Positions 2,823 to 42,350 of a DNA stretch of 64,000 nt are shown one piece after another; within the stretch, counting starts at the first letter, position 1, and every line of letters begins with the position of its first letter. The translations under genes and the position numbers were made by a program. The DNA comes from an uncultured Candidatus Poseidoniales archaeon (lineage in GTDB: Archaea > Thermoplasmatota > Poseidoniia > Poseidoniales > Thalassarchaeaceae), in contig CAYFFQ010000004.1 of assembly GCA_964342465.1 (NCBI GenBank), forward strand, positions 95,077 through 159,076. The letters are read 5' to 3'. The notes under the pieces were generated by a model. The model did not search any database, was not told the DNA's origin, and saw nothing but the letters and a program-made list of their open reading frames with translations.

Positions 2823-3179
2823 ATCTAGTGTGCGTTCAATCGCTATGGTTAAAATCCAATTTCCTCTGGCGTAGGTCGTATGAGCGAAGAGGCACTTCAG
2901 GACGACGCCCCATCACAGAGCCTCTATCTACTCGCTTGGTCAGTTTCACTGATTTTGACCTTCATCATCGGCGTCACTTATTGGTGAGATGTACACATCA
3001 TCTCTTCACTTCTGTGGGGTGTGTCATCCGTTGGGTTTTACCACCACATTTTGAGGAAATGGTCAATTCTAGGATGGGTTAGACCCATCATCAATCGACG
3101 CTCGCCGTCACTAGCATCCCCTCGGTTGAATTGTTCCTTCCACACGCGTTGATAGGTGATGAGTGGTGCGCAGGAGTGG

Positions 3180-5048
3180 ATGTGTGGTATCGGGGTGCTC
3201 CTTGGGAGGGGTGATGCACCGTTTGCTCGTCGGATGGCAGGGGCACTATCACACCGCGGCCCTGATGGAATTGGCGTCTGGAATGATGATGTTTGCACCT
3301 TTTCTCACTCCCGCCTCTCCATCGTCGACCTACTCGGCTCCGACCAACCCATCGGCTCAGAACATGGCTGTTGGCTGGTTCAGAATGGTGAAATCTACAA
3401 TTATCAGGAATTGAGGCGGGAGTTCTCAGCATACGATTGGAGAACCAAGGGTGACGGAGAGACTATTCTTGCCGCCCACAAAACCGTCGCGAGAGGTGGT
3501 GGCGCCTCCACGCCACAACAACCTGTTCGCTCAGTCATCGTCGGGGATGTGAGACGGACTGCGGCTGCTGACGACGATGCCAATGTGGCACAGAGGCATG
3601 TTGAATGGGTGAGGAAACTCGATGGGATTTGGGGTTTCGCTCTTTGGGATTCGGTTGAAGAGGAACTTATCCTCTGCCGCGACCCCTTAGGAGTCAAACC
3701 ACTCCTCAGAACACTCACCGATAGTGGAGAGTTGATGGTTGCTTCGGAAGCGAAGGCATTCAGAGTTCATTCGGAATACACACCTCGTATCGATGAGAAT
3801 GCCCTATTGGCCCGATTGGCATTTGAATATCCGCTCGATGAGACCACCTTGTTCGAGGGTGTGTCTCAAGTGGCGCCGGGCACAATCGAGACTTGGGCTC
3901 TTGATGAAATGGGCAGAGCCACCTTGACGGGAGTGGCGCGATACATTTCCGATAGGGTGGCGCCGGCGCAATCGTGGAATCCTGCTACTGACGCTGCCCC
4001 CCTTCTTGATTCGCTCTGCTCTTCAGTTGAACAGAGGCTGATGGCGGATGTTCCTGTCGGAATCATTCTCTCAGGTGGCCTTGATTCGAGCATGGTCGCT
4101 GGCCTTGCTCATCGTGCTGCCAAAAATGCCGGAAAACCGGTGCCAGAGTGCTGGACGGTGGCGGAGAGCGAGGACAATCCGGATTTCATCGCCGCCGAGG
4201 AGGTATGTTCGGTACTTGACCTCTCTCACCATACATCTACGCTTGAGGAAGGGGCCTTCTGGAACCACTTGCCTGCTCTCAGTTGGTTCGGAGAAGACCT
4301 TGACATCTCTGTCCTCTTCTTCCAACCCCTATTCGCAAAGATGGCAGAGGAGTTGTCCGTCGGGTTGTGTGGGCAAGGTGCTGATGAATTGCATGGCGGT
4401 TATCCACGATACCGCGAACTCTCTCGCCACCGTCAATCGATTGCTGACCGTCTCACCGCCAGCCGCCACCCCTTCGCTCCCCATCTGCTCACCGACATCT
4501 CCACAGTCACGCCCGTCGGGGCCGGCCAACCTTGGCGGAAGAAGGCACATAATCCCCATTCTGACTTCCGTGACCTCGCATCGACTCTCCAATACGAACT
4601 TGACCACGGCCAACTGACCAATTTCCAACTCCGCTTGGTGGACAGGCACAGCATGGCTCATGGCTTGGAGGTGAGGGTGCCGTTCCTCGGCTCTTCACAT
4701 CGCAAGGCATCACACACCATACCTATGGATTGGCGAGTTCGAGGGAGTGAGGAGAAACTTGCTCTTCGCTCTGCGGCTGCATTGACCGACCTCCCTTCTT
4801 CAATAGTGAAGAGGCCGAAACTACCCGCAGGTACGGCAACCACTCCGACAATGTTGGCTGAAATACTTGCAGAACTTCGCCCTCATACTGAGGATTGGCG
4901 AAGGCGATATCCAACCCTTCAACGGGTATTGAAAGGTCAACCGGATATGACTATCGGTCTGCGTCTCTTCGAGTCGTTGCATATCACTGACGGTGGAGTT
5001 GGACGGGAGAAGAAGGAACTTTGGGACCTGCTGAATGATGTCGAGTAA
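3180..5048 (+). CDS. asnB: Asparagine synthetase (glutamine-hydrolysing), AsnB family
   Basis: N-terminal MCGI (catalytic Cys2 requires the start at ATG 3180, not 3156), a class-II GATase domain, the SGGLDSS PP-loop and a C-terminal synthetase domain. Contains a ~45 aa low-complexity insertion before the GIWGFALWD motif. Confidence 0.85.
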   Translation: MCGIGVLLGRGDAPFARRMAGALSHRGPDGIGVWNDDVCTFSHSRLSIVDLLGSDQPIGSEHGCWLVQNGEIYNYQELRREFSAYDWRTKGDGETILAAHKTVARGGGASTPQQPVRSVIVGDVRRTAAADDDANVAQRHVEWVRKLDGIWGFALWDSVEEELILCRDPLGVKPLLRTLTDSGELMVASEAKAFRVHSEYTPRIDENALLARLAFEYPLDETTLFEGVSQVAPGTIETWALDEMGRATLTGVARYISDRVAPAQSWNPATDAAPLLDSLCSSVEQRLMADVPVGIILSGGLDSSMVAGLAHRAAKNAGKPVPECWTVAESEDNPDFIAAEEVCSVLDLSHHTSTLEEGAFWNHLPALSWFGEDLDISVLFFQPLFAKMAEELSVGLCGQGADELHGGYPRYRELSRHRQSIADRLTASRHPFAPHLLTDISTVTPVGAGQPWRKKAHNPHSDFRDLASTLQYELDHGQLTNFQLRLVDRHSMAHGLEVRVPFLGSSHRKASHTIPMDWRVRGSEEKLALRSAAALTDLPSSIVKRPKLPAGTATTPTMLAEILAELRPHTEDWRRRYPTLQRVLKGQPDMTIGLRLFESLHITDGGVGREKKELWDLLNDVE

Positions 5049-5127: not shown

Positions 5128-6360
5128 ATGGTGGAGTACAGTGGACCCGACCTTCTCGCCGATCTGTCTCAGAGAGTGGAGGAGAAGCGGGAGGAGTTGA
5201 TTCATTTCTTCAAGGCTGAGAGAGAGCGATTGCCTATGCCTCTGTATGCCTCTGTGGACATCAGGGATGCTGGGTGGAAGGTGGCAGCGGTTGATGCCAA
5301 CGCCTATCCGGCAGGATTCAACAATGTCGGAGAGAGTCAACGTGGCGTTATTTCAGAGAACCTTGGAAAATGGTTGCAAAGACACCACCCCAACGCCAAG
5401 AGATTGCATATCTGGCCGGAGGCGCATACTCGCAACATCGCTTATGTGGATAATCTCCTCACTCTGAAATCTCTTTTTGAGAACATAGGAGCCGATGTGA
5501 CTGTAGGTCTTCGAGAACTGAACGATGTCGGGAGAATCAGAGGTGAAAGTGGTGAACTGGAACTCTCCCATGTTGAGATTGGCGAATCAATTCTCGTTGA
5601 CGGAGAGAGGCCTGACCTCATAATCTTAAACAATGACCTCTCGGACGGCCCATCGGAAATCCTCTCAGCAAATGCAGTCGCTCCTCCGCCGGAGATGGGC
5701 TGGTATCAGCGACGCAAGTCGAACCATTTTCGCCATGTACAACCATTCTTAGATGGGGTCGCTGAGATTCTCGGAATCGACCCGTGGTTGATAGGTACTC
5801 ACTGGTTCGTAAGTGAGGACAAATGTCTCGAAAAAGTGGCCTGTCGAGTTGAATTGGCAGCTCAGGTAGATTCCTGCCTCGCATTTCTGAAAGGAAAGTA
5901 TGAGCAGTACGGTATATCTGGTGAACCCGTCCTGTTTGTAAAAAACGACTCGGGAACCTATGGTCTGGGCATCATAGAAATTCGCAGTGGGGAGGAGTTG
6001 TTGAATCTCTCCAACCGAAAGGTCAACCGTCTCACCTATGGCAAAGGGGGTTCTCAAGTGGCAGATTTTCTGCTTCAGGAAGGTGTACCCACTACCCTAA
6101 GAGCGGAGGGTTATGTCGTTGAACCTTGCACTTATGGAGCCGGTGGGGAGAGTTGCGCGACATTCTATAGAGTGAATGACAAAAAGGGGGAAATGTCAAA
6201 TCTGAATACACCATCAACGCAATTTTTCGGGCCGCAAAAGATGATGCAGTTGGAAGGTGGTCCTGAGATTCTCAAGAAACAGTCCAGTTGGCACGCCTTG
6301 GTTGCAGAACTCGCAATGCTGGCAATGGCCGCGGAACTAGAAGAATTGCAAGCGAGTTGA
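5128..6360 (+). CDS. Putative glutamate--cysteine ligase (GshA, 'ferrooxidans-type' family) / ATP-grasp-like ligase
   Basis: The N-terminus PLYASVDIRDAGWKVAAVDANAYPAGFNNV and the later FVKNDSGTYGLGI match my recollection of the small bacterial GshA family (Pfam GshA / TIGR02049). Not verified by search. Confidence 0.5.
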   Translation: MVEYSGPDLLADLSQRVEEKREELIHFFKAERERLPMPLYASVDIRDAGWKVAAVDANAYPAGFNNVGESQRGVISENLGKWLQRHHPNAKRLHIWPEAHTRNIAYVDNLLTLKSLFENIGADVTVGLRELNDVGRIRGESGELELSHVEIGESILVDGERPDLIILNNDLSDGPSEILSANAVAPPPEMGWYQRRKSNHFRHVQPFLDGVAEILGIDPWLIGTHWFVSEDKCLEKVACRVELAAQVDSCLAFLKGKYEQYGISGEPVLFVKNDSGTYGLGIIEIRSGEELLNLSNRKVNRLTYGKGGSQVADFLLQEGVPTTLRAEGYVVEPCTYGAGGESCATFYRVNDKKGEMSNLNTPSTQFFGPQKMMQLEGGPEILKKQSSWHALVAELAMLAMAAELEELQAS

Positions 6361-6955: not shown

Positions 6956-7480
6956 TCACCATTCCGATTCATGGGTCAGCAGCCACTGCTTTGTCTCAGC
7001 ACCATCAGCAGCAGAATAGCGCCCCAATCCTCCACATGATTTTAGAACTCTATGACAAGGTATGACCAAGGAAATAGGGTTATTCGCCATGACGGTGCCA
7101 ACGGCGCGGGGGGCCCCTTCATGCCCAGATGCGGAAGCGAGGGCCGCGTACGAAATCGTCTCACCGAGTTGTACCTGCCTGACGAGTGTCATTGAGACAC
7201 TTTTTGCAAATGATGATAATTGATTGAGATCTAACTTCGGAGTCTCTCTCATCTCTTTTGAAAAATAGCCAGTGACCCACGCCTCGGTGTGGTCAAGGTG
7301 CACATTCCCCTCTTCACACTCTGGTCTGTCCGACAACTGACCCCAGTAGAGGCGAGTTAGACCGACATCTGATGCTTCTGCTACCATTTCTCCATGTGGT
7401 GTTCTGATGGTTCGCCATGCGGATTCTACAGTCAAGAACATCAGCCTCTTTCTGAGTTCTCGATTGTCAAGAACCTTCAT
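6956..7480 (-). CDS. ogt: Methylated-DNA--protein-cysteine methyltransferase
   Basis: Active-site motif IPCHRV followed by LGRYSAADGAETKQWLLTHE. Size 174 aa. Confidence 0.85.
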   Translation of the reverse strand: MKVLDNRELRKRLMFLTVESAWRTIRTPHGEMVAEASDVGLTRLYWGQLSDRPECEEGNVHLDHTEAWVTGYFSKEMRETPKLDLNQLSSFAKSVSMTLVRQVQLGETISYAALASASGHEGAPRAVGTVMANNPISLVIPCHRVLKSCGGLGRYSAADGAETKQWLLTHESEW

Positions 7481-7796
7481 CTGCTCCCTGCATCGGTGAA
7501 TCCTCTAGCTCACCCGTGGATGAATCCGGCTGTTCCATGCCTACAATTTCATAATTGGATGGAAAAAGCGCGATTGCAATGCCAGCGATGAGGGCTGCAA
7601 GCCCAAGATAGAATCTCTGTTGTGTGATCATCAATTCAAGCGCCACAACAACCAGTAGTAGCCCACCTACATTGGACACCCAAACTAAGGTCTTGAATGT
7701 TGAAAGAGAAACTCCACTGTTGTGTTTTGAGCGATATGGGCCGAATTCGGCACCGAATCTGACGGGTTCCTTCTCTTCTTCACTCATCATAATCAC
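7467..7796 (-). CDS. Small membrane protein (2 TM), last gene of the respiratory operon
   Basis: 109 aa with two hydrophobic helices (VGGLLLVVVALELMI, LGLAALIAGIAIALF). The start overlaps the ferredoxin stop by 4 nt (7793-7796) and the end overlaps the ogt start. Confidence 0.5.
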   Translation of the reverse strand: MIMMSEEEKEPVRFGAEFGPYRSKHNSGVSLSTFKTLVWVSNVGGLLLVVVALELMITQQRFYLGLAALIAGIAIALFPSNYEIVGMEQPDSSTGELEDSPMQGADEGS

Positions 7797-8125
7797 CGGT
7801 CAATCATGGAAATGGCATTGGTCGGGCAGGCGAGGACACAGAGTCTGCAACCTGTGCAATCATCACGCAATATCTCGGCCTTTTTGTTGACTTCAATCCC
7901 ATCAATCTCGCTCCTGAGCGGTGCGTCATAAAGGCGAATCGCCTTGTCATCACAGACGAGAATGCATTGGTCACAACCGATACAGGCGTCAATGGCAACG
8001 AAAGCGACGACAGTGGCACCCTCTTCTATTTCAGCAGCAATGTTATCCCGTGCATTGGAAAATGCCGTCAGAATGTGTTCAGCGTGGGCTGCACGCCTAC
8101 TCTCCACCTCATCACCTCTGCTCAT
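7793..8125 (-). CDS. 2x[4Fe-4S] ferredoxin-domain protein
   Basis: Two cluster motifs, CIGCDQCILVCD and CTGCRLCVLACP. Lies 40 nt downstream of the cytochrome b-HdrD-like fusion gene on the same strand. Confidence 0.8.
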   Translation of the reverse strand: MSRGDEVESRRAAHAEHILTAFSNARDNIAAEIEEGATVVAFVAIDACIGCDQCILVCDDKAIRLYDAPLRSEIDGIEVNKKAEILRDDCTGCRLCVLACPTNAISMIDR

Positions 8126-8165
8126 CCTGATACCTTAGGCGAGGCCATCGGCTATCATTCCTTGC

Positions 8166-11066
8166 TCAAGCGGCTACTTCTTCTGCTTTGATGCTGGCGA
8201 CCGCATCAGCGAGATTATCTCCCGCATTTTTCTCTTCCAATTGTCTAGCGAGGAAGGTGACTACATCTGTGATCTCGAAGTCATAGGCGGGGTCGCCTTC
8301 GAACTTGAGGCACTCGAAGTGAGCAACACACTTGGGGCAGGAAGTGACCATCATCTCTGCTCCGCTGTCGATTACTTCCTTGAATCTCTGGACACGGATG
8401 GTTCGGCTGTCCTCATTACATGACATCATGGATGAGACTCCGCAGCAGAGAGCATCTTCCCGGGAATGTACCATCTCGACGAGGTCAACACCACCTACGG
8501 CTGAAATCAATTCTCTCGGTTCATCATAGATGTTCATCTGTCGCCCCAGTCTGCATGGGTCGTGGAATGTGACCTTCTTCGGGCAGGAGGTGTTGAGTTC
8601 AACATCGAAGCCGGCTTCTTTGAGGTATTCGGTGGTGTGCATGACCTTGATGCCCTCAAGGCCGTAGTCCATGGCGAATGTTCGGAAACATTCGGCACAA
8701 CTGCTGACCAGTGTATCAATTCCACTCGCTTCAAGTTTCGCCTTGTTGTGGGCCTTCAGTTTGTCAAAGACATCATCCAATCCCTGCCATTTCTGGTCAT
8801 GCCCACAACATTTCAGGAAATCTCGTCCGAGGTAGGAGACATCGACACCCATTTCATCGAACAGGGTGAAGGCGGCGGTAGTCGTCTCTCCTAGATTCAT
8901 CTCGCCCCTGTTGAGATGACTGAAGACCATGTCTTGGTCGAGATAGTCTACACATCCGGGGTAGTAGCCTACATTGGATGATATCGGGTATTCATCCACT
9001 GTCATGAACTCTTCGTCGGCATCACTTTCCGCCTCAGCGTTGATAATCGCCTGCAGAACTGTGTGCGGAATGTTGGCGGCTGGTGGGCCACCGACAATCA
9101 GATTGCGCCTGATATCCACATACGAATCGTAGTCGACCAACTGTGGGCAGGCATTGGTACACGCTGAACAGGTCAGACATGAGAAGAGTGGCACACCATC
9201 GTCTTCGTTGTTCCAAGTGTTGTAGATGATGTTCAGTTTGTCTCCACCGGTGAAGAGACGAACCGGACAGGCGTCATCACAGAGGTCACAACCGTAACAC
9301 TTGTTCATCTCGTATTCGTAGCCACGAGCCATGCTCCGGAGGAGGACATAGACCATCGCACCCAAGCCCAATGGGGGAATGAAAAGTGAGTAGGTAAGTT
9401 TAGCGTCCAGCGCCTTCGGATTCTTGTGGAATGTAGGGTTGGTCATCACCAATCCGGCGAGGTCATCGTCTGACACACCTGCAAGGGTCATCTCAGTGAC
9501 ATTACCGCGGTCGAGTGCCATTCCGGTATCTGGATTGAGGATAAGTGGCTGGAATACTGAGACTGCGGTGGTAGCATCTACCACAACACTGCTGTTTCCT
9601 GAGTCGAACTCGGAATCGAATGTCATCATCACCGTGTAATCTCCTGGCGAAGCGTCGAATGTCTTAGTCGTGCAGGTCATGCCTTCCTCGAGGTCACCAG
9701 CCAATGAGGCGACTACGACTCCTGCTGCATCCTTCACCGTCATCGATATGGAGTGGTCGCCAGCCTTGCGAGTTGATGTTCGGAATGTGCATCCAAGGTC
9801 CATTGACAATTCTTCCACTCCGAGGTCTTCTACACTCATCGTATAGGTGTTGGAAATGGAATTGTCACCGGAGAAGGAGAGGACATCACTGTACCCATTG
9901 ACACCTCCGGTGACGACCCCCTCGCTGCTGTGTGTCTCGATATGGTTGTTAGCATCATTGAAGTCGATTAAAGTCGCTTGAACGGGTTGGTATATTCCCC
10001 AATTCATCCAGTGGACAGCGGGAAGAAGGCAGTATTCACCTCTGTCGGCGGCATCAGCGCCACTGAACTTGGAATCCTGCCAAAGAACACTTCCCGAACT
10101 CGCTCCATAGGAGAGACAGTTGCCACTCATGCTATCCCAATCATGCCCCTCACCATACACGACAAGCGTATCCTGAGGTTGATTTCTGAGCGTCGCAAGT
10201 TCATCGACTTCGTCCATCGCACCCAATCCACCCATGTCCCAAAACCCGCCTTCGTAGATAGGCCAAGAGACGACAGATAGCAGCACCGCGATGATTAGTG
10301 CCCCCAATCCGACCATCCTGCCGATTCGGGGGGTGGCTCGCGAACCAGCCGCCTTGATGAGATATGACTTGGCTAGGAAAAAGAGAACTATCCAGATGAG
10401 GATTCCAGTCAGAATCCATGGAATGGCGTTGAAGAGGTCGGCAATCCACGGCTCCCTGACACCGCAACTTAGTCCTGCATGGGAATTTAGTAGACAGAAA
10501 TCTGAACGATTCTTCCCATACAGGAGCAAAAATATGTTTATCGAAAAGACGGAGATGAACCAGATGTGAGCGAGGTAAATCACTCCAGCCGCTGCGAACC
10601 ACGGGTCTTCCACACCTCTCTTGGCACGCCCACCGAGGAAAGGGGGAAGCGCGAGTATTCCGACTGGGAAACCGGTTAGGAATGCACCCCACCATCCAGC
10701 ATTCCAAGAGATGACAGGACTTCCGAAGAAGTCAGCGATTATCTGTGGGAGAGGGATGTCAAACTGCGGAAGGTATTCCCCCCATCGGAGATATCCATAG
10801 GAGAAGAGCACATACCAGTCTGGAAAGACGAACCCCGCCTGAGCGAATGGGTCTGCGGCGCTGTGGAGAGGTGGTGGAATCAACCACGAATAAAAGCATA
10901 ACACAGCCGTCATAGCGGCAAGAACGATTGTATCGCGCAGAACTTCATGCGGCCACAATGGATGGCCGACGAATGTTCTCTGCCGCCCCACCTCTGCATC
11001 TAGGAGTTTGTCCTTTTCCTGCATATAGACATCGGCAATGCGGCCAAAATTATCGAACATACCCAT
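8166..11066 (-). CDS. Fusion protein: cytochrome b C-terminal (subunit IV-like) domain + ~290 aa extracytoplasmic domain + TM + HdrD/GlpC-like Fe-S/CCG domain
   Basis: aa 1-270 are polytopic with the Qo-site-like motif FPDWYVLFSYGYL (PEWY equivalent). aa ~270-555 are hydrophilic with NxS/T sequons. A TM helix follows (LFIPPLGLGAMVYVLL). After it come CYGCDLCDDACP and CLTCSACTNACP (two 4Fe-4S motifs, nt ~9141-9300) and two CCG-type Cys-rich repeats (FLKCCGHD ~8799-8820, ALCCGVSS ~8441-8456, plus HDPC and SCPKC). Confidence 0.8.
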   Translation of the reverse strand: MGMFDNFGRIADVYMQEKDKLLDAEVGRQRTFVGHPLWPHEVLRDTIVLAAMTAVLCFYSWLIPPPLHSAADPFAQAGFVFPDWYVLFSYGYLRWGEYLPQFDIPLPQIIADFFGSPVISWNAGWWGAFLTGFPVGILALPPFLGGRAKRGVEDPWFAAAGVIYLAHIWFISVFSINIFLLLYGKNRSDFCLLNSHAGLSCGVREPWIADLFNAIPWILTGILIWIVLFFLAKSYLIKAAGSRATPRIGRMVGLGALIIAVLLSVVSWPIYEGGFWDMGGLGAMDEVDELATLRNQPQDTLVVYGEGHDWDSMSGNCLSYGASSGSVLWQDSKFSGADAADRGEYCLLPAVHWMNWGIYQPVQATLIDFNDANNHIETHSSEGVVTGGVNGYSDVLSFSGDNSISNTYTMSVEDLGVEELSMDLGCTFRTSTRKAGDHSISMTVKDAAGVVVASLAGDLEEGMTCTTKTFDASPGDYTVMMTFDSEFDSGNSSVVVDATTAVSVFQPLILNPDTGMALDRGNVTEMTLAGVSDDDLAGLVMTNPTFHKNPKALDAKLTYSLFIPPLGLGAMVYVLLRSMARGYEYEMNKCYGCDLCDDACPVRLFTGGDKLNIIYNTWNNEDDGVPLFSCLTCSACTNACPQLVDYDSYVDIRRNLIVGGPPAANIPHTVLQAIINAEAESDADEEFMTVDEYPISSNVGYYPGCVDYLDQDMVFSHLNRGEMNLGETTTAAFTLFDEMGVDVSYLGRDFLKCCGHDQKWQGLDDVFDKLKAHNKAKLEASGIDTLVSSCAECFRTFAMDYGLEGIKVMHTTEYLKEAGFDVELNTSCPKKVTFHDPCRLGRQMNIYDEPRELISAVGGVDLVEMVHSREDALCCGVSSMMSCNEDSRTIRVQRFKEVIDSGAEMMVTSCPKCVAHFECLKFEGDPAYDFEITDVVTFLARQLEEKNAGDNLADAVASIKAEEVAA

Positions 11067-11081
11067 TCAGATGACCCCCTC

Positions 11082-11951
11082 TCAATGCGGCTCCGCAATA
11101 CCTTGCACCCAAACGATGAACAGGTGAATGATGATGAGTGTGGTGACGATGACGGGCAGAATGAATACATGTAGGAAGTACATCCTCGTCACTGTGGCGC
11201 CTGAGAGTGAGGTCCCACCGAATAGCATGATTGCTGCCCAATTACCTATCAGTGGGGTGGATTTCGCCATGGCGATACCGATGGTCGCTGCCCCGAAAGC
11301 GAGAGCATCCCACGGGAGCAGATATCCGGAATATCCGAAGACGATTGTCAGCAGCATTAGTCCAACTCCGATTAGCCAGTTCAACTCACGTGGGTTTCGG
11401 TAGGCGCCGGTGAAGTAGACGCGGCACATGTGGAGGAAGACCGAAGCCACCATGAAGTGTGTCCCCCAGTGGTGGATGCTTCTGATGATGTAGCCGAACG
11501 GAAGTGAGGTCATGATGAACTCCATACTTGCGTAGGCGGGGGTTGTATCGCCTTCACCCCCCGGCACATAGTAGATGCCGAGAATGGTGCCGGTGATGAC
11601 TAGGATGATGAAGGCGAGAAAAGATATTCCACCTAGACAGTAGAGTGGATACCAATACCAAATTATTCGAAGTTTGTACTTCTCAGAGTGGGTCAGAGGC
11701 ATCTGTCGATGCACCGAGTAGTATGCGTCGCGGCTCATCGCCCAATAGTCCTGAATACGGAAACGTGTGTCAAGCCAAGAAAAGGTCCACAGAAACAACT
11801 TCTCAGCCATCCCCATTTTACCGACCGATTCGACGGCGCGGAGTATCTCCTTGCGAGGCACATCCTCACCTTCTTTTCTCAGAGTGAGAGCCACCAAGAC
11901 CGTGACGATGATGATAAAGAGCCACAGAAACCAGAATTGTAGTAACATCAT
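11082..11951 (-). CDS. Cytochrome b, N-terminal (b6-like, di-haem) subunit
   Basis: SIHHWGTHFMVASVFLHMCRVYFTGAYRNPRELNWLIGVGLMLLTIVFGYSGYLLPWD is the classic cytochrome b/b6 helix B-D region with paired haem-ligand His residues. Confidence 0.9.
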   Translation of the reverse strand: MMLLQFWFLWLFIIIVTVLVALTLRKEGEDVPRKEILRAVESVGKMGMAEKLFLWTFSWLDTRFRIQDYWAMSRDAYYSVHRQMPLTHSEKYKLRIIWYWYPLYCLGGISFLAFIILVITGTILGIYYVPGGEGDTTPAYASMEFIMTSLPFGYIIRSIHHWGTHFMVASVFLHMCRVYFTGAYRNPRELNWLIGVGLMLLTIVFGYSGYLLPWDALAFGAATIGIAMAKSTPLIGNWAAIMLFGGTSLSGATVTRMYFLHVFILPVIVTTLIIIHLFIVWVQGIAEPH

Positions 11952-11959
11952 CTCATCTC

Positions 11960-12835
11960 CTAATTGCAGAATGTGTACCAGTCGAGAATCTCGACCACAC
12001 CCTCCGCTTCAAAATCGATCGCTTCCATTACATCGTTATTGACAACGAATGGAATCAGAGGCATGCCCACCGGTGCAGGGCCGCCCGTTCGTTTGACACC
12101 GAAATACTCGAAGGATGAACCGGTGTCCTTGTTGATGTTGGTGTTCTTTTCAATGACAGTGGGGTCGAACCGTGATGAATGACAAATGCAGAATAGTTTG
12201 TTTCCGCCAGAATCGAGGCCGCCGGGAATCCAGTTGTCAGCGGTGAAATCGTTGGCAACGAGTTGCCAGCCGGGGATGCAACAGAGGTGCGGGCAGCGAG
12301 ACATGATGATGATGATGTTGTCGTGAATCTTGAGGACAGACAATTTCTCATCCTCTTCTATTTCACCGCCATAACCGATGACAGCTCCGGTCTGGTCGAC
12401 ACCATCCATGAATTGGAATCTAACTCCACCCGATGAAGTCGGTGAATTCTTGTTTTCATCGTGTGGGACATAGACGACAGTGACCGGCATCCCACCCCAA
12501 ACGCCCTGTGCTCCAGCCATGCCAGTGGCGCTCTTCGCCGCTTCGCCCTCGAAGTCAGACTTCTTCATCGGCTCTTGGTGCTTCGAGCCATACCAAACGA
12601 CATCTTCCTGTCCCTTCGGCACCCAGAAGAGGATGGCGTTGTTGCCACCATCTCCATCCTGCGTTCCCATCAGGAGTGAGGCGAATCCGATTGAGCCGAG
12701 ACTTGCCATCGTTATCACGCCGGCTGCGGAATTGAAAGAATAGCGCATGAACTTCCGCCTGTCGAGGCTGTATCCGGGTGTTGGTGTAGGCTCGCCTGCT
12801 GCTGGAGAGGGCCGCAGTCTGAATTCTCTAGCCAT
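11960..12835 (-). CDS. Rieske [2Fe-2S] protein with Tat-like signal
   Basis: Rieske box I CPHLCC and box II CICHSSRF. The N-terminus has RRKFMRYS followed by a hydrophobic stretch (twin-arginine-like signal/anchor). Confidence 0.9.
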   Translation of the reverse strand: MAREFRLRPSPAAGEPTPTPGYSLDRRKFMRYSFNSAAGVITMASLGSIGFASLLMGTQDGDGGNNAILFWVPKGQEDVVWYGSKHQEPMKKSDFEGEAAKSATGMAGAQGVWGGMPVTVVYVPHDENKNSPTSSGGVRFQFMDGVDQTGAVIGYGGEIEEDEKLSVLKIHDNIIIIMSRCPHLCCIPGWQLVANDFTADNWIPGGLDSGGNKLFCICHSSRFDPTVIEKNTNINKDTGSSFEYFGVKRTGGPAPVGMPLIPFVVNNDVMEAIDFEAEGVVEILDWYTFCN

Positions 12836-12838
12836 CCT

Positions 12839-13291
12839 TCACACCTCATATTTCTGCCAACTCTCGGGGTCCTTGGGAGCGACGAACTTGCCCCGCCTGT
12901 GTTTGACAATGACGAGGTCTGGAGCCACCCACTTCAGGTAGACAATGCCCATTATGATTAGTGTCACCATGGTCATGCCGAGATGGAATGAGAGTTGCTG
13001 CTGGTCCCATCCGTGGTAGAGTCCGTATGAGAGTGAGCCAGCCCAATAGAGGGTCCAGGCCACCCCCCAGAGAAAGACAAGAATAACCAGTGCAGAGGTT
13101 CCTGAAGGTGCCAGTGAAGCGCGCACTACAGTGCCCGGTTCGACCCTGTTGAATACTCCGTGGTCGATGGCCGCTTCGTAGGTTTCCTCGTCGAGGTCGA
13201 AATCACTCAGGGCAGTTCGCGCGTCGGCGACACTCACCTTGCCGGAGGCGACATCCCTGAGCATCTGGGTGATGACATCCTTCTCCATCAT
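12839..13291 (-). CDS. Membrane protein (2 TM) of unknown function in the respiratory operon
   Basis: 150 aa. Soluble acidic N-terminal ~60 aa, then two hydrophobic helices (ALVILVFLWGVAWTLYWAG, LGMTMVTLIIMGIVYL). Ends 3 nt before the Rieske gene start. Confidence 0.5.
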   Translation of the reverse strand: MMEKDVITQMLRDVASGKVSVADARTALSDFDLDEETYEAAIDHGVFNRVEPGTVVRASLAPSGTSALVILVFLWGVAWTLYWAGSLSYGLYHGWDQQQLSFHLGMTMVTLIIMGIVYLKWVAPDLVIVKHRRGKFVAPKDPESWQKYEV

Positions 13292-13362
13292 CGACCACCC
13301 CTCTTGGCTAGGTAATCGTCAAGGGCGTCCTTCCAGACTTGCAAGTTCAGAGGATTGCTCAT
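13288..13362 (-). CDS. Speculative 24-aa micro-ORF bridging two operon genes
   Basis: My translation is ATG(13362) MSNPLNLQVWKDALDDYLAKRGGR TGA(13288). Its ATG overlaps the upstream stop as ATGA (13359-13362), and its TGA overlaps the downstream ATG (13288-13291). Too short for the ORF track, and there is no homology evidence. Confidence 0.2.
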   Translation of the reverse strand: MSNPLNLQVWKDALDDYLAKRGGR

Positions 13363-14186
13363 AGTTGGTCACCTCTCCTCAGATGTCTGATTCGCAGTTG
13401 CAGCAGATTGGTGCGGCCGGTGTAGTGGCGGCTGAAACCGTAACGTAGGAAGAAACCACAGAAGATGATGACAGAGATGACAGCGCCGAATCCGAGTAAG
13501 CCGAGCCAGTGGGCGCGGAAGGGTGCGCCCATGCTGTGCAAGTCGATGTGGCCGCTGTCGACGGCCGGCGGTTGGATATTGCCATCGCCGGCCATTATAG
13601 TCCGAGTGTCGCCGTTGTCGCTACCTTCTTTGAGAGTTACAGAGAGGCGGTTGTAGGCGTCAGGAGCCATTGGCGCGCCATTGCCATCAACGGCGTTTCC
13701 AGACAACCACACGGTCACATCACCACTCCCAGTGGCGGGTGCTGTCCATGTCACCACCCACAGTCTGTCAGCCACCTGAGAGCCATCAGACGAGTGTGTC
13801 ATCGTCTGTTCTGAGCCATCATTGTCAACAAGAGTCTCAAAGCCAGCAGCGGCCGCGAGCATGCCACTGGAAACCCGCATCGAGAATCCACCCGTGGGTG
13901 AGTGGCCGCCAGCGATATCAGGCCCACCGATGAGTTGGATGGTGAAGGTGTAGGTTGTTCCTTCCATCCATGCGTAGGGTACGCCGTCGAGAATGAGGGT
14001 CACACTGTCAGAGGGGGCGATTTCGTTGTTGGTGTGGCAGGTACAACCGTTCTTGGCGACATCTGTTCCACCCTCTGCGACATCTCCGGTTATTCCGTCC
14101 GATTCTGCAATCGAGGCGCCAGCAAGCAGGAGTGCGGATAGGAGCAGAACCACCGCCAGTTTGAGGTCGTTGATTTTACCACCCAT
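13359..14186 (-). CDS. Secreted, C-terminally membrane-anchored protein, Reeler/DOMON-like pattern; first gene of the respiratory operon
   Basis: Signal peptide (LKLAVVLLLSALLLAGASIA). It has NGCTCH, TYTFTIQLIGG, GGFSMRV, MTHSS and WVVTWTAPATGSGDVTVWLSGNAVDGNG, an order of motifs resembling Reeler-type domains. A C-terminal TM (LGLLGFGAVISVIIFCGFFL) is followed by a basic tail. Confidence 0.6.
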   Translation of the reverse strand: MGGKINDLKLAVVLLLSALLLAGASIAESDGITGDVAEGGTDVAKNGCTCHTNNEIAPSDSVTLILDGVPYAWMEGTTYTFTIQLIGGPDIAGGHSPTGGFSMRVSSGMLAAAAGFETLVDNDGSEQTMTHSSDGSQVADRLWVVTWTAPATGSGDVTVWLSGNAVDGNGAPMAPDAYNRLSVTLKEGSDNGDTRTIMAGDGNIQPPAVDSGHIDLHSMGAPFRAHWLGLLGFGAVISVIIFCGFFLRYGFSRHYTGRTNLLQLRIRHLRRGDQL

Positions 14187-18254: not shown

Positions 18255-20828
18255 TCAATGTTTGCCAGCCCAAGAATCTTCGACTGATAGAGCTCTGTTC
18301 TTCAGAGGGATAATCTTGCGATATACTTCAGAAGGCTCGCATACCCTACCGCTGACAGTCAGTAGACGCTTCAGTGGTATGCCGAAATGTGCCTCGTTTT
18401 CCAACAAGAGAGGTTCGATAACGCGCCAATCTGCCTCACTCAATCCGACAAACTCTGCACCATTGAGTTGTGACTCCGAGAGTATCTCGTAGGGGTCACG
18501 AACATAGATGGCTCCACCACTCGAAAGCGAGAAGAGGTTGCCGCCTGGATATGGTGTGGAAAGTTCCTCCAATTGGCCATCTCTCGTGTATCTCATGCCG
18601 TTGATGATGACAAACCCACCCCCCTCTAGAGGGTTGCCGGCCATGAACGACTCGGCGAGATAGTCAAGAGCGGTGCCGTTGATAACCAGTTTCGGACTCC
18701 CCACCGAGTTTATCATCGGCCTTCCCGCAGCGTTTCCCAAAACGAAGAGGTGCCCCCCCTTCGCCCCATAACCATAACACTGCCCTACATCGCCGTGGAC
18801 CACTAGTGTCCCTCGCTTGTGGATCTGCCCGATTTGGTCCTGTCCGTTGCCATGCATGTGTATGGTCATTCCGTCGCTGCCACTACCGAGGTAGTCGCCG
18901 ACGCTGCCGTAGACATCTATTCGCACAGATTCACTTTCCATTCCAAATCCGTTCCCGATGAATCTGTGGCCGCGACAATGAATCACGGTGAACTTCTTCC
19001 AGCCGGCACGATAGAGGGCTACCAACTCTCTTGCTAGTGACTCGGTTCCTTCGATGGGGAATAGCCGCGCATCCACGATGATGCTTTGCCCAAGGTTTTC
19101 GGGGGTTGGCAAATGGCCTGTGGACTTCTGCCTATGGAAATGTTCACACTCACGCTGTCCCACATGCCCAAAGATGGACATGATGCTGTCTTCGACAAGG
19201 TCGTCCCAACGGCTTCGCCGCTTGTCACCGATGTCGTAGTGGCGGTCGAGCAGAAGTGTAAGGAGTTCGACCGCCTCCTTTCGGGATTTTTCCGCCCCAT
19301 AGGTAGATATTTCACTCAACAGGCATCTCGCTGCAGCCCAATCAAGATTGGAGATGGTGTCGCTGACGCTACTGAACATCTCCTCGGCGGACCACGATTG
19401 AGGCCAGTAAAATCCAGATGTCATGGCCGCATCTACTATTCTGAAATCACCCTCTGGATGTGTGTCCACAACATCGCCGAATTTGTTGGTCATCTCCAAT
19501 TGATAGGAACCATCGCCCTCTGGTGCGACATTGAAGATGAACGAACCACCATCGGTGTATGAACCACCCCGTGCGTTCCAATACTCGTCGCATCGTCGCC
19601 AGAATCGTTTGTCCTCAGAACTGAGGCTTTCAAGAACTGCATCGATGACCTGCTTCTCAGAACCGCAGAAAGCGATGCCAACCTCTCCCCTCTGGTAGGA
19701 GAAAACCTGCGGCCTGAGCATGCTCGTATCGGTGATGCCAATGAGTTGGTGCGCAGGTCCATCGGATTTTGCGATGATGAAAAACCAAGGTCCGTCAGGG
19801 GAGCCGTGGATGTGGGTCTTCTGAATCGCCTCATAGATTTCCTGTTTCTCGTCGGAAAGCATGACGAAATCCAACTCGCCCGTCGGTGCCAGTGATTCAA
19901 TGACGTATTCAATCGGATAACCATAGACGCGAGAGTGCAGGTCGAATCCGAGAGCGGCGACCTCGGTGTCTGTGAAGAAGAGAGGTTCCATGTTTCTCTG
20001 GGCGAGATAATCCTTCACCGAGACGTAGTTGGAGAAGTCCCCATTGTGTACCAGTGCGACATCCACACCCTGTCCAAATGGGTGCGCCCCGCCGGGGTGA
20101 GTAACCCTCCCACGTGTGGGGTAGCGATGGTGGCCTATCCAGACATGTGCAGTCAAGTCATCCATTCTATAGTATCTGATGACATCTTCAGCGTAGCCGA
20201 CTATCTTGAGAATGAGCATATCCATGCCGTGGCTGAGGACGAATGCATCCGCACGCTGATTCTCGGCATAGAACTCGACATTGAGTCGATGCGTATTTTG
20301 AAAGACCATCTCATCCCACATTGCCTTCTTGTCGGCGAAGTCGGATTCCACCAAGCCACCTGCGGCGAGAAACTCTGCCACTGCGGCCGGTTTAGGGCGG
20401 ATGAAATAACAGACAACATTCGGTGGCCTCACCTCGAGATTAGGCAATGACTTCCAATCATCGAGAATCGGAACTTCGTGGATATGGTCTACATCGAAGT
20501 TACATTGAATGTACTTCTCCTCGACATCACCTCTGACCGAGTCGTCCAAGTAAGCAATTGCATACAAGTAATCATTCTTCAGTGTTTCAGGACTCACTCC
20601 GAACTGAGTTTCATCCAGCCCGACGAGAGCTACGCCGCCCCCTTTTCCGTTTCCACGGTTCCTCATCTGCTCGAGGGATTTTATCAGGTGTCGGCCGGCG
20701 ATGGGGACTTCCGATGCCAATCCGACGACGCCACAGCCGCCCTCAGCGGCATCGTCGTCATTCATCTTAACCGAAGCAAGAGTTTCGTTCATCATTCGCC
20801 GTGAATTCAGAATCGCATTTGGGTCCAT
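18255..20828 (-). CDS. Glutamate-synthase-like protein: class-II glutamine amidotransferase domain + unknown middle region + GXGXG (GltB C-terminal) domain
   Basis: N-terminal ...AAEGGCGVVGLAS (Ntn Cys after a ~31 aa propeptide) with RGNGKGGGVAL. The C-terminus has IGNGFGMES...VYGSVGDYLGSGSDGMTIHMHGNGQDQIG...VVHGDVGQCYGYGAKGGHLFVLGNAAGRPMI, the repeated GXGXG beta-helix. Confidence 0.7.
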   Translation of the reverse strand: MDPNAILNSRRMMNETLASVKMNDDDAAEGGCGVVGLASEVPIAGRHLIKSLEQMRNRGNGKGGGVALVGLDETQFGVSPETLKNDYLYAIAYLDDSVRGDVEEKYIQCNFDVDHIHEVPILDDWKSLPNLEVRPPNVVCYFIRPKPAAVAEFLAAGGLVESDFADKKAMWDEMVFQNTHRLNVEFYAENQRADAFVLSHGMDMLILKIVGYAEDVIRYYRMDDLTAHVWIGHHRYPTRGRVTHPGGAHPFGQGVDVALVHNGDFSNYVSVKDYLAQRNMEPLFFTDTEVAALGFDLHSRVYGYPIEYVIESLAPTGELDFVMLSDEKQEIYEAIQKTHIHGSPDGPWFFIIAKSDGPAHQLIGITDTSMLRPQVFSYQRGEVGIAFCGSEKQVIDAVLESLSSEDKRFWRRCDEYWNARGGSYTDGGSFIFNVAPEGDGSYQLEMTNKFGDVVDTHPEGDFRIVDAAMTSGFYWPQSWSAEEMFSSVSDTISNLDWAAARCLLSEISTYGAEKSRKEAVELLTLLLDRHYDIGDKRRSRWDDLVEDSIMSIFGHVGQRECEHFHRQKSTGHLPTPENLGQSIIVDARLFPIEGTESLARELVALYRAGWKKFTVIHCRGHRFIGNGFGMESESVRIDVYGSVGDYLGSGSDGMTIHMHGNGQDQIGQIHKRGTLVVHGDVGQCYGYGAKGGHLFVLGNAAGRPMINSVGSPKLVINGTALDYLAESFMAGNPLEGGGFVIINGMRYTRDGQLEELSTPYPGGNLFSLSSGGAIYVRDPYEILSESQLNGAEFVGLSEADWRVIEPLLLENEAHFGIPLKRLLTVSGRVCEPSEVYRKIIPLKNRALSVEDSWAGKH

Positions 20829-22154
20829 TCATTCACCTCCCCCGTAATAAAGAAGGTCAGTTCTTCCCACCAACTCCTTGACATTCTTGAGACCGAGTTT
20901 TCTGAGGATCTCTCGCAACCTTGATTGAACCGCCGTGTAGTAGTTGTCCAACCGCTTCACGGCCCACTCCAATTGCACCCACTCCTGCAGTTCGATGTCA
21001 GTCGTAGTCAGTCCCCAAGGGCACCCCCTACCTGATGGGCCGCCCTCGCAGTTGGAGCAGCGCGTACATCCAAGTGCCACCAAGTCACTGGTGCCAAGAA
21101 CCACTCCGTCCGCCCCGAGGGCAATCGCCTTGGCGATATCATCAGCGGTCCTGATTCCACCAGAAGCGATGAGGGTAACCTCGTCACGGACGCCCTCACT
21201 GATGAGGAACTTGTGAACTTTCGGAATCGCCAATTCTATTGGCATGGCTATATTCTTCTTCGCTATCTCTGGGGCGGCACCGGTCCCACCGAATCCACCA
21301 TCGAGATGAATGATGTGAGCGCCGGCATAATAGGAACCGACTGCCACCATGTCGACATCGTGCGGTGTTGATACCTTGACTGCAATCAGTGCATTCGGAT
21401 TGACCGTCTGAATCCAATCAATGTGCTTTGAGTGGTCTTCCACAGAATAGGTGGAATGGAATGGAAATGGGCTGAACAGACTGACAAAGGGAACCGAGCC
21501 GCGCATCTTGGCGACCTCTTCTCCAGCCTTGCTGGCGAGCAGGTGGCCTCCCAATCCCGGTTTGGCGCCCTGTGCGTACTTGAACTCCACAATCGGTGCT
21601 GCCTGAATGGCCCTCTCCTCGACACCGAAGTAGCCGGTAGCGACCTGAGTAATGACATGCTCCTTGCATTCATAGAGCTGTTCGGGATAACCCCCTTCAC
21701 CTGTTGACATGTAGGTGCCCCAATTCTTGGCGTGGCGAGCACGGGCTAACATGATGTTCACCGAGACAGAGCCGTACGACATTCCTCCTCCGTAGATGGG
21801 TATGGGTATTTCGAGTGTTTTCCTCTCATCACCTCGGCGGTTGAGTGTGATGCTGGTGTCAATGGTCTCATCTTCAGGTACCCAATTGACCTCATCGCTC
21901 ATCTTGAATGAGAGCCTGTCAAAGCCGCCGTCGCTATCTCCCGTCTTGAAATTGAGATGGTCGGGCATTTTTCCAGTGGATGCCATGTACCAGGTTGAAA
22001 GAATCAATTCGTCCGTCCAGCGAGCATCTCCGAGTGCGGGCGGTATCTCGAATTTCCCGAATGCACGAGCATCCATGCCACCATGCATCAGGTGGGTTGT
22101 GCTTTCAATCAGAGTCGCACTCGGTCTGACAGGTTCCTTGTTCATCGCCATCAT
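20829..22154 (-). CDS. Glutamate synthase FMN-binding (GltB domain 3-like) protein
   Basis: PIYGGGMSYGSVS, MSTGEGGYP, KYAQGAKPGLGGHLL, SPFPFHSTYSVEDH and LDGGFGGTGAAP are the hallmark motifs of the Glu_synthase FMN domain. A C-terminal Cys cluster CTRCSNCEGG...GCPWG is present. Confidence 0.8.
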   Translation of the reverse strand: MMAMNKEPVRPSATLIESTTHLMHGGMDARAFGKFEIPPALGDARWTDELILSTWYMASTGKMPDHLNFKTGDSDGGFDRLSFKMSDEVNWVPEDETIDTSITLNRRGDERKTLEIPIPIYGGGMSYGSVSVNIMLARARHAKNWGTYMSTGEGGYPEQLYECKEHVITQVATGYFGVEERAIQAAPIVEFKYAQGAKPGLGGHLLASKAGEEVAKMRGSVPFVSLFSPFPFHSTYSVEDHSKHIDWIQTVNPNALIAVKVSTPHDVDMVAVGSYYAGAHIIHLDGGFGGTGAAPEIAKKNIAMPIELAIPKVHKFLISEGVRDEVTLIASGGIRTADDIAKAIALGADGVVLGTSDLVALGCTRCSNCEGGPSGRGCPWGLTTTDIELQEWVQLEWAVKRLDNYYTAVQSRLREILRKLGLKNVKELVGRTDLLYYGGGE

Positions 22155-41535: not shown

Positions 41536-42350
41536 TCCTTCACCTCGGTGTCATCGTCATCTTGCGCCTTGCGCGACATGCTCGATGGTCCGCCGTCTGC
41601 GACTACCCTAGCTGCGGCAAGCAGGTCTCCTGTGCCATCCTTCAGGTCATCGAATCCATTTTCAATGCGATGATTCCAATACTTCAGTATGTTGTCAGAT
41701 ACCTCGAGGAGTGACCGCGCTTTGTTGTATTGGCCCTTGACAACTCTACGCACCTCTTTGTGGTCCTGATATTTCTGGTCCTGACTCTCACTCTCAGTTG
41801 CCAGTTTAATCAAATCGCCATGATGTCTGTCCGCTTCATCAAGCAGTTGCCGATGCTTCGCCCACCCCTCCCGATACTCCTTCAGTTGAGGGTCGTTGTC
41901 CAACCGGTTTGCCACCCATTCCTCATGTTTGCGGGTGAGTTGTTTCATCTCACGAAGCAATTTTCTCTCTTGGTTCAAAGAGTGTGCAGAGGTTTGGATT
42001 CTCGATTCAACATCTGAAATCTTGTTGGCAAGTTTCTCCTTGGCCCAGGCGGGGTTGGGATTCTTCAGGCGTCCTTCGGATATGAGGGTCTCGCGCAGGG
42101 CCGTGAGGCGAGTTCTCAACTCTCGCGCTTCAGTCTGCAAGGCATCCCTCAACTTCTTCAATTCAGCGACTTCCGCAGTCGCTCTGTTGCGAGAAGCGAG
42201 TTCCTGTTCGACTAGAGGTTCAACCGTATCCAATTCGCTTTTTCGCTCTCGGATAATCTCAGGCAGTACCGCATTCAGGTCATGTCTTCTCTCAATTATC
42301 GCTCTCGCGAGAGTCTCCGGCGTCATGACCAGCAGTTTGTCGACTTTCAT
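41532..42350 (-). CDS. Coiled-coil protein (COG1340-like), paralogue 3
   Basis: 272 aa, heptad-rich (ELKKLRDALQTEARELRTRLTALRETL...). Has a central KISDVESRIQTSAHSLNQERKLLREMKQL block. Translationally coupled to paralogue 2. Confidence 0.6.
   Translation of the reverse strand: MKVDKLLVMTPETLARAIIERRHDLNAVLPEIIRERKSELDTVEPLVEQELASRNRATAEVAELKKLRDALQTEARELRTRLTALRETLISEGRLKNPNPAWAKEKLANKISDVESRIQTSAHSLNQERKLLREMKQLTRKHEEWVANRLDNDPQLKEYREGWAKHRQLLDEADRHHGDLIKLATESESQDQKYQDHKEVRRVVKGQYNKARSLLEVSDNILKYWNHRIENGFDDLKDGTGDLLAAARVVADGGPSSMSRKAQDDDDTEVKE

Follow-up and report, generated by a model that had tools for sequence, protein, structure and literature searches.

On a stretch of DNA of 64,000 nucleotides from an uncultured Candidatus Poseidoniales archaeon (contig CAYFFQ010000004.1, positions 95,077 to 159,076; hereafter the window), a single open reading frame (ORF) joins what reads as a diverged subunit IV of a Rieske/cytochrome b complex to an iron-sulfur (Fe-S) module of the HdrD type. 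The host belongs to the Marine Group II (MGII) archaea, which are among the most abundant microbes of the surface ocean, and the operon at positions 7467-14186 would encode its Rieske/cytochrome b6-type quinol oxidase. The Rieske/cytochrome b6 core is genuine, the ligands of the Fe-S chain on subunit IV are strongly constrained, and the chain starts at the membrane face. Two known modules, Rieske/cytochrome b6 and HdrD, are here combined in a new way that is widespread in archaea. The reading that we prefer is that of an Fe-S wire through which electrons would flow inward to the quinone site Qi, and we regard the case for it as evenly balanced.

The fusion protein, in amino acid (aa) numbering from its first Met, is composed of the following parts, including transmembrane (TM) helices.

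8166..11066, minus strand: whole fusion protein (subunit IV-like part, MGII insertion and HdrD-like part), a 966-aa ORF with an ATG start and full-length orthologs
10524..10979, minus strand: cytochrome b C-terminal/subunit IV-like core, aa 30-181, with helices E, F, G and the ef loop, by profile comparison
10812..10823, minus strand: Qo-site motif PDWY, aa 82-85, by motif scan and family alignment
9411..10523, minus strand: MGII-specific insertion, aa 182-552, a gap in the alignment of non-MGII relatives
9330..9395, minus strand: last TM helix, aa 558-579, by hydropathy, the counterpart of the fourth helix of short relatives, which brings the chain back to the cytoplasm
9135..9311, minus strand: two-[4Fe-4S] ferredoxin domain, aa 586-644, by Pfam Fer4_8/9/10
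8307..8969, minus strand: two CCG domains, aa about 700-920, with HdrB/HdrD-type cluster sites, by two matches to PF02754

The initial annotation of this DNA had proposed three parts within one 966-aa ORF, and the ORF call, motif scan, Pfam and hydropathy bear this out. The polytopic N-terminal region with PDWY is present with the motif at aa 82-85, and the hydrophilic segment of about 290 residues placed between TM helices is an acidic stretch of 291 aa (aa 267-557; 43 Asp and Glu against 12 Lys and Arg) separating the last two of the helices predicted by hydropathy at aa about 46-64, 127-145, 162-180, 214-232, 248-266 and 558-579. The two CxxCxxCxxxCP motifs and two CCG repeats that it had read in the C-terminal region are found both by the motif scan and by Pfam, which matches CCG (PF02754) twice (E=3.6e-23) and Fer4_8/9/10 at aa 586-642. 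The ferredoxin motifs are CYGCDLCDDACP at aa 590-601 and CLTCSACTNACP at aa 630-641. Both CCG sites have the complete C...CC...CxxC pattern, the first with its CCG at aa 753-755 and the five-Cys set C705/C753C754/C790xxC793, the second with its CCG at aa 874-876 and the set C838/C874C875/C910xxC913. Because the Lys/Arg counts of the loops are compatible with an N-in, C-in topology, the middle segment is predicted to lie outside and the Fe-S part in the cytoplasm, as the earlier annotation had also supposed; the loop that carries PDWY, with a single Lys or Arg in 62 residues, is likewise compatible with a position outside.

A protein search with the fusion returned 457 homologs, and the best 120 of these are full-length (923-969 aa, 62-100% identical), save for one record marked partial. 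Orthologs of full length, with 908-969 aa, are present in a very large number of assemblies made independently (TARA, JGI, ENA, NCBI and Logan), some on contigs of more than 100 kb, with source names pointing to Poseidoniales of both Thalassarchaeaceae and Poseidoniaceae. Their annotations say only "Fe-S oxidoreductase", "heterodisulfide reductase-related" or "hypothetical". The N terminus of the fusion is kept, with M1 and G8 invariant and G2 in at least 90% of the sequences, and the junctions are kept too.

By profile comparison the N-terminal part of the fusion is a diverged cytochrome b subunit IV. The check suggested in the initial annotation, an hmmscan match to Cytochrom_B_C (PF00032), failed on this point: there is no match on the whole fusion at E<=0.01, nor on aa 1-275 at E<=10. 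We take this as the limit of sensitivity of the model and not as a refutation. Other profile methods show the homology. The only direct signal from a library is NCBIfam TIGR01156 (cytochrome b6f subunit IV; E=0.006). A profile built from 16 MGII N-terminal regions finds in the PDB cytochrome b6f subunit IV chains only (E=0.005), aligning query 30-94 to chain 24-89 with the WP...ADPFA...PEWY...LR elements in register. Searched against 1.84 billion representative proteins, the same profile finds only 119 relatives, and all those of at least 200 aa that span the motif region have P[DEA]WY, nearly all of them PDWY. Some relatives do score with PF00032 (P0173 with 48.7 bits, P0264 with 46.7, P0283 with 39.5 and P0149 with 32.6, against a cut-off of 20.7), and hhalign joins the MGII profile to such PF00032-positive relatives at 99.8% (E=1.2e-29; 143 columns over helices E, F and G). 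In the family alignment of 71 sequences, P82, D83 and W84 do not vary. A structure search by Foldseek gave nothing for the N-terminal part among the top 50 matches.

The family extends well beyond the MGII. Distant relatives were gathered from the search of representative proteins and from a second protein search that used an alignment of distant matches, which together yield about 45 shorter relatives of 518-798 aa whose precomputed Pfam domains are PF00032, Fer4 and CCG. A scan of GTDB representative genomes found full-length versions in metagenome-assembled genomes (MAGs) of Thermoplasmata/Thermoplasmatota, in Candidatus Geothermarchaeales, in Candidatus Bathyarchaeia and in one unclassified archaeon. 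The search of marine Thermoplasmatota that the initial annotation recommended does find the full-length fusion in MGII, but the fusion is not restricted to that group, as other archaeal lineages have it. The four relatives with PF00032 scores given above were rescanned, and in each of them PF00032 is above threshold and the HdrD-like module follows straight after the fourth helix. The first [4Fe-4S] motif of the short relatives comes about 15-30 residues past this helix, and thus the site must sit at the n-side (cytoplasmic) membrane face.

All eight ferredoxin Cys are invariant in the 71-sequence alignment, as are C705, C753, C790, C793, C838, C874, C875, C883, C910, C913 and C919, together with H756, D757, H835, D836 and H916. 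C754 is conserved in at least 90% of the sequences, and two distant members have V or T there, as EtfD does. L557 of the last helix is invariant and G569 nearly so across the family, and the junction itself (the helix, then GYEYxLNxCYGC) is strongly conserved. Across several archaeal lineages the module is without exception joined to subunit IV of a Rieske/cytochrome b operon. Two loci depart from the full form: in L008, a Halobacteria MAG, subunit IV carries two [4Fe-4S] clusters only and the CCG domain is absent, while in L009 the CCG part is a separate gene followed by a polyferredoxin. Since the minimal variant L008 has the two [4Fe-4S] clusters alone, these are the core element.

Within the fusion, residues 182-552 are an MGII-specific insertion, because the non-MGII relatives in the 71-sequence alignment pair with aa 30-181 and then jump to aa 553-956. 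The insertion contains an outside loop with two conserved Cys, the extra TM helices at aa 214-232 and 248-266, and a beta-rich outside domain at about aa 267-552. Accordingly, the middle domain pointed out in the initial annotation is present in MGII but is not general to the fusion family, and the same holds for the two extra helices. It is the least conserved stretch of the protein, with 50% mean identity within MGII against 92% for the ferredoxin domain, the most conserved. A first AlphaFold run with 23 close homologs gave a predicted local distance difference test (pLDDT) score of 55, which the 71-sequence alignment raised to 75.7; in the model the insertion is beta-rich and forms a confident beta sandwich (pLDDT about 85-95). 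Foldseek with the outside domain finds only generic jelly-roll/GOLD-like folds, and the domain has no recognisable metal-site pattern. We read the outside beta sandwich and the two extra helices as a lineage-specific decoration without a recognisable redox site. The outside domain is expandable: the MGII orthologs P0306 and P0335 have 1334-1344 aa, with a middle region about 370 residues longer than that of the window protein.

The fusion gene lies in an operon with the following further genes.

11082..11951, minus strand: cytochrome b6-type subunit, 289 aa, PF00033 E=2.6e-42, aligned with orthologs
11960..12835, minus strand: Rieske iron-sulfur subunit, 291 aa, TIGR01416 E=8e-10, below its cut-off, with motifs kept in orthologs
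12839..13291, minus strand: DUF7318-like small membrane subunit, 150 aa, PF24002 E=9.5e-5
13359..14186, minus strand: 275-aa outside protein with a C-terminal TM anchor, NCBIfam choice-of-anchor V, candidate acceptor of Rieske electrons
7793..8125, minus strand: 110-aa two-[4Fe-4S] ferredoxin directly downstream of the fusion, Pfam Fer4 families, position conserved in MGII
7467..7796, minus strand: 109-aa two-helix membrane protein, the last subunit, with a motif common to its counterparts

A cytochrome b6-like N-terminal subunit gene directly upstream of the fusion had been noted in the initial annotation, and it is there at 11082-11951; the content of the operon likewise confirms the Rieske/cytochrome b setting assigned to the fusion gene. 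The alignment of orthologs shows that the four His that bind the haems of cytochrome b6 are conserved, as is the Cys of CLGG for haem cn, and that the Rieske protein has conserved its CPHLCC and CICH boxes and a twin-arginine (Tat) signal. The marks of a Rieske/cytochrome b6f-type complex, namely the Rieske boxes, the four His and the haem cn Cys, are therefore all found. The order of the window (275-aa protein, DUF7318-like, Rieske, cytochrome b6, fusion, ferredoxin, two-helix protein) recurs both in MGIIa (L005) and in other MGII (L006), where the DUF7318-like protein has about 150 aa, the Rieske protein about 285, cytochrome b6 288, the ferredoxin 91-126 and the two-helix protein about 100. 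In the related operons elsewhere, DUF7318, Rieske, cytochrome b, fusion and small two-helix protein likewise follow one another in this order. The DUF7318 family opens most of the related operons examined, and the L004 counterpart agrees by BLASTP; the motif VGG..L....LE...AG..I.L.P of the 109-aa protein is common to its counterparts in MGII, in Thermoplasmata, in the Halobacteria MAG and in L009. Both the DUF7318-like and the 109-aa two-helix proteins are probably extra subunits of the archaeal Rieske/cytochrome b complex. The cytochrome b N-terminal subunit itself is enlarged in two Thermoplasmata loci (L001 5343-7973 and L007 5366-7984), where Big_5 Ig-like domains fused ahead of it bring it to about 875 aa, so that in these Thermoplasmata the outside decoration is on another subunit than in MGII.

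The gene directly downstream of the fusion deserves separate mention. A ferredoxin-type protein is almost always encoded beside the fusion, with larger Fer4 or Fer4+FlpD proteins at that position in the relatives, and the 110-aa ferredoxin is likely a cytoplasmic partner or subunit of the complex. Its best NCBIfam match is rnfB, below the cut-off. MGII genomes have been reported to lack a canonical complex III although they encode cytochrome b and a Rieske protein, and to carry an orphan RnfB (Tully 2019, PMC6336850). Our ferredoxin is probably this orphan RnfB of genomes that are otherwise without Rnf. In the Thermoplasmata loci L001 (9794-11320) and L007 (9851-11416), the gene after the fusion encodes a protein of 508-521 aa with ferredoxin and FlpD/MvhD domains, and the L001 sequence shows a Cys-rich N terminus, a Rossmann GxGxxG and a two-[4Fe-4S] domain. 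By its sequence this protein looks like a reduced HdrA/QmoB, of which MGII would retain the ferredoxin part only. Other relatives have richer neighbourhoods: L004 continues downstream with HdrC-like, HdrB-like, HdrA-like (1010 aa) and FlpD genes, and L002 (Geothermarchaeales) is surrounded by FrhB-like, HdrA-like, FlpD, further HdrD-like, GCV_H and GlcD-like genes.

At the other end of the operon, the 275-aa protein combines a signal peptide with an outside domain and a TM anchor at its C terminus. Pfam does not match it, a sequence search of the PDB gave chance matches only, and a homolog search found unnamed MGII proteins only. Across all 115 MGII orthologs it keeps GCxCH (C48, C50, H51), H131 and H217xM219. 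No cytochrome c family (f or c1) was detected in the window operon by Pfam or NCBIfam, and the CxCH of this first gene is neither CxxCH nor a standard motif for haem c. Elsewhere the product of the first operon gene is a cytochrome c with a single haem in L008, a multihaem cytochrome in L004 and a cupredoxin-like protein in L009, and an anchor motif, LRA[HY]W[LI]G, is common to the 275-aa protein and these same-position subunits. Judging from these motifs, the 275-aa protein may be a new kind of acceptor in place of cytochrome c1/f.

How such a complex would work can be outlined as follows. The subunit IV part and cytochrome b6 would together form the Qo site, and subunit IV would be extended on the cytoplasmic side by the HdrD-type module with its two cubane [4Fe-4S] and two CCG cluster sites. 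Together with the downstream ferredoxin, this module would form an electron wire from the n-side haems (bn, and cn at the Qi pocket) to a cytoplasmic redox partner. In the inward direction, electrons donated in the cytoplasm by reduced ferredoxin, a thiol or a flavoprotein dehydrogenase would pass to the n-side haems and on to quinone at Qi; the quinol so formed would be oxidised again at Qo of this complex, by way of the Rieske protein. Three points here are inferred by us: a distance between the Fe-S chain and the haems that is short enough for electron transfer, the partner that the chain serves and the direction of flow. The wire is suggested by the invariance of the ligands in 71 sequences and by the ferredoxin domain being the most conserved part, by the n-side place of the first [4Fe-4S] motif in the short relatives, and further by the minimal variant that keeps the two [4Fe-4S] clusters and the split variant that has CCG as a separate gene. 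It is also suggested by EtfD, the mycobacterial ETF:menaquinone oxidoreductase (ETF, electron transfer flavoprotein), whose like chain of two CCG-bound and two cubane clusters ends 7 Å from a b haem beside menaquinone (PMC13083937).

Inward flow is favoured because the haem cn cysteine, a feature of the Qi pocket, is retained. GlpC, GlcF, LutA and SdhE are CCG subunits that feed quinone in aerobes, and we count them for the same direction. Genes for HdrA, FlpD/MvhD, HdrBC and FrhB-like proteins adjoin the fusion in some relatives; quinone would be a natural high-potential acceptor for HdrA/MvhD modules, as in FixABCX, and this is counted likewise. EtfD argues in the same sense, since in an aerobe it delivers the electrons of ETF to the quinone pool and so feeds menaquinone (PMC13083937). 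MGII are described as obligate aerobes that have this as their only complex III (PMC6336850), and inward flow is favoured because it would not waste quinol electrons in such an organism.

Several observations weigh against an inward wire. The relative L002 has YLGS in its cytochrome b (1274-1993) where C[LF]GG is found elsewhere, and so is without the cysteine for haem cn. Genes for ETF, a dehydrogenase or Hdr proteins are not found among the 20 larger window ORFs scanned, nor flanking the MGII loci L005 and L006. For the membrane part the AlphaFold model is of moderate quality only (pLDDT about 45-85), and AlphaFold places no haems or clusters. The full five-Cys pattern of HdrB/HdrD would fit a thiol/disulfide active site, although it gives no direction. 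Moreover, quinol is the donor and a cytoplasmic disulfide the acceptor in HdrDE and DsrMK, so that the superfamily works both ways. The comparative evidence from the haem cn cysteine, the CCG modules of aerobes and EtfD leans slightly away from the direction from quinol to cytoplasm.

This opposite direction, which the initial annotation had suggested, is the serious rival, which we hold to be possible but less likely. Here quinol would be bifurcated at Qo, one electron going through the Rieske protein to oxygen and the other through bL, bn and the Fe-S chain to a cytoplasmic acceptor. This acceptor, which would be the downstream ferredoxin or, at the CCG clusters, a disulfide of low molecular weight, would take the place of quinone at Qi or be reduced in addition to it. 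The Cys pattern is complete and of HdrB/HdrD type at both CCG sites, unlike the non-catalytic sites of EtfD, and the module shares 40-42% identity with HdrD-like proteins that Methanoperedens and ANME-2, the latter being anaerobic methanotrophic archaea, encode together with HdrA, HdrB and HdrC. HdrDE and DsrMK, which pass electrons from a quinol-like carrier to a cytoplasmic disulfide, set a precedent, and the missing haem cn cysteine of L002 would also suit this direction. In PMC12954380, anammox Rieske/cytochrome b complexes are proposed to make NAD(P)H in a comparable way. On the other side, MGII are described as obligate aerobes with no other complex III (PMC6336850), for which a return of every second quinol electron to the cytoplasm would be a waste unless regulated, haem cn is retained in MGII, and the step from haem bn to ferredoxin would be uphill and against the membrane potential. 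Neither is a gene of thiol metabolism consistently linked, as GshA is adjacent in L005, and probably in the window too, and not in L006.

Just beyond the operon, the window has two plus-strand ORFs, 5128-6360 (410 aa) and 3156-5048 (Asn-synthase-like). A like arrangement in MGIIa L005, with Pfam matches to GshA (glutamate-cysteine ligase) and Asn-synthase, is absent in L006. The GshA neighbour in L005 is a weak hint of a link to low-molecular-weight thiols.

It is also conceivable, but improbable, that the module is tethered and electrically separate, in which case subunit IV would be a mere anchor for an HdrD/GlpC/LutA-like enzyme that uses quinone or a soluble partner and not the haems. SdhE, GlpC and LutA indeed work at the membrane surface without a haem partner, and Foldseek puts the module near LutA, with a template modelling (TM) score of 0.76 on the target. 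Yet an anchor would hardly be subunit IV of a Rieske/cytochrome b operon in every case and with so strongly conserved a junction, and the two-cubane minimal variant without CCG would have no catalytic or quinone-facing site of its own. An artefact, with the ORF an assembly chimera or a read-through of two genes, is practically ruled out by the recurrence of the uninterrupted ORF of 908-969 aa in independent assemblies with conserved N terminus and junctions and by the shorter fused relatives of other archaeal lineages, the sole point in its favour being the lack of a PF00032 match on the N-terminal part.

As for what follows from these results, the missing subunit IV of MGII can now be assigned and the orphan "RnfB" is probably explained. 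The complex III of MGII is placed in an archaeal family with a proposed Fe-S wire on the cytoplasmic side, implying a route that the textbook complex III lacks. If the wire reaches the haems, the family would offer a natural system for the entry or exit of electrons at the n side of Rieske/cytochrome b complexes, a question of relevance both to the cyclic route of cytochrome b6f that depends on ferredoxin and to the anammox proposals, and also a system for the coupling of quinone-based with flavin-based bifurcation. Energy-yield estimates for MGII heterotrophs would then change as well. A bolder claim, which we put forward only tentatively, is that the complex of these archaea, the most abundant in the plankton, does not run a plain Q cycle but is hard-wired to cytoplasmic Fe-S chemistry, as a ferredoxin- or thiol-to-Qi injector or as a quinone-based bifurcating enzyme. 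The injector, if true, would be a natural covalent form of a route from ferredoxin to quinone by way of haem cn that has long been debated for cytochrome b6f; the bifurcating enzyme, if true, would send a low-potential electron to a cytoplasmic disulfide or ferredoxin. The relatives with HdrA and MvhD genes would then join quinone-based and flavin-based bifurcation in one assembly.

Elsewhere in the window, Pfam matches none of three ORFs within 40306-45168 at E<=1e-5; those of 409 and 272 aa lie on the minus strand and that of 906 aa on the plus strand. At 18255-22154 on the minus strand, the domains of glutamate synthase are split over adjacent genes, GXGXG/GATase (857 aa) and Glu_synthase (441 aa), which may represent the split enzyme form seen in archaea; the ORF next to this pair (22151-23692, 513 aa) has no Pfam match.

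Among known systems, the closest in its membrane core is the cytochrome b6f/Bacillus-type bc complex, which the window complex resembles in its split cytochrome b, in the four His and the CxGG Cys of haem cn, in a P(E/D)WY subunit IV that aligns in register, and in a Rieske protein with a Tat signal. It differs in having no cytochrome f/c1, with the 275-aa protein in that operon position. Compared with cytochrome b6f, subunit IV of the family adds a fourth helix and the cytoplasmic HdrD-type module, to which the MGII add two more helices and the outside domain, with DUF7318 and the small protein with two TM helices as extra subunits.

The cytoplasmic module resembles HdrDE and the HdrD-like proteins of Methanoperedens and ANME-2, with which it shares two CxxCxxCxxxCP and two complete CCG motifs. 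Over about 360 aa, its identity of 40-42% is to HdrD-like genes of Methanoperedens, ANME-2 and other Methanosarcinales. The Methanoperedens matches that came up in the genome scan were rejected as fusions, being soluble HdrD-like genes beside HdrCBA: in the two loci examined they have about 340 aa and stand in the order HdrD-like, HdrC, HdrB, HdrA. The same order HdrC, HdrB, HdrA is found downstream of the fusion in L004. Unlike in HdrDE, the membrane partner of the fusion is a Rieske/cytochrome b6 complex and not the HdrE dihaem cytochrome; the point made in the initial annotation, that HdrD-like modules usually partner with dedicated b-type cytochromes, stands, these being of the HdrE/DsrM/NarI type. 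In contrast to the hosts of HdrDE, the aerobic heterotroph host is not expected to have coenzyme M (CoM) and coenzyme B (CoB). By the NCBIfam cut-offs, the fusion reaches no named equivalog among HdrD, TfrB, DsrK, GlpC, GlcF and LdhH (TfrB 99.6 against 385, LdhH 80.9 against 800, DsrK 30.9 against 400, GlpC 34.6 against 278). The QmoC/DsrMK-type complexes of sulfate reducers, in which a quinone-interacting membrane haem protein is wired to HdrC/HdrD-like clusters, often with HdrA-/MvhD-like proteins, follow the same logic as the fusion, but their cytochromes are of the NarI/HdrE type, with neither a Qo site nor a Rieske protein.

The initial annotation regarded the architecture as uncharacterised, and full-text searches, which covered open-access literature only and whose silence is not proof, found no description of a subunit IV-HdrD fusion; bacterial cytochrome b-FeS/MvhD fusions have nevertheless already been described (PMC4122944). 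A Rieske/cytochrome b complex of Methanoperedens, described as unusual, was considered as the same thing and rejected, as it has c-type cytochrome subunits and no HdrD part (PMC4683180). The bacterial cases are a few cytochromes b with PDWF that are fused to 4Fe-4S, MvhD or flavin domains and have no Rieske gene nearby (Kao and Hunte 2014, PMC4122944). They are like our fusion in that a cytochrome b-family protein is joined to 4Fe-4S, and in two cases also to MvhD, which parallels the FlpD/MvhD genes beside some archaeal relatives. The window differs from them in its split cytochrome b, its PDWY, its Rieske gene and an HdrD-type module with CCG, of which PMC4122944 makes no mention. The same study connects PDWY to menaquinol and to Rieske proteins of low potential (Kao and Hunte 2014, PMC4122944), and this fits the window complex.

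The best solved relative of the CCG module is EtfD of Mycobacterium smegmatis (9OJN; profile E=1.5e-26), which is also the top match by Foldseek, where the Fe-S module is matched by EtfD, LutA and HdrB. Like the fusion, mycobacterial EtfD (Rv0338c) is one polypeptide made of a membrane domain and an HdrD-like cluster chain. The membrane part of EtfD is a five-helix haem b domain, whereas that of the fusion is subunit IV-like, and none of the marks of EtfD (this five-helix domain, the C-T-G and the His ligand of cluster D2) is found in the fusion. Where the first site of EtfD has C-T-G, with a linear [3Fe-4S] cluster, and His583 (CPHC), the fusion has CCG and Glu (CAEC), and because these are the positions diagnostic of EtfD, the ligand pattern of the fusion is of the HdrB/HdrD type.

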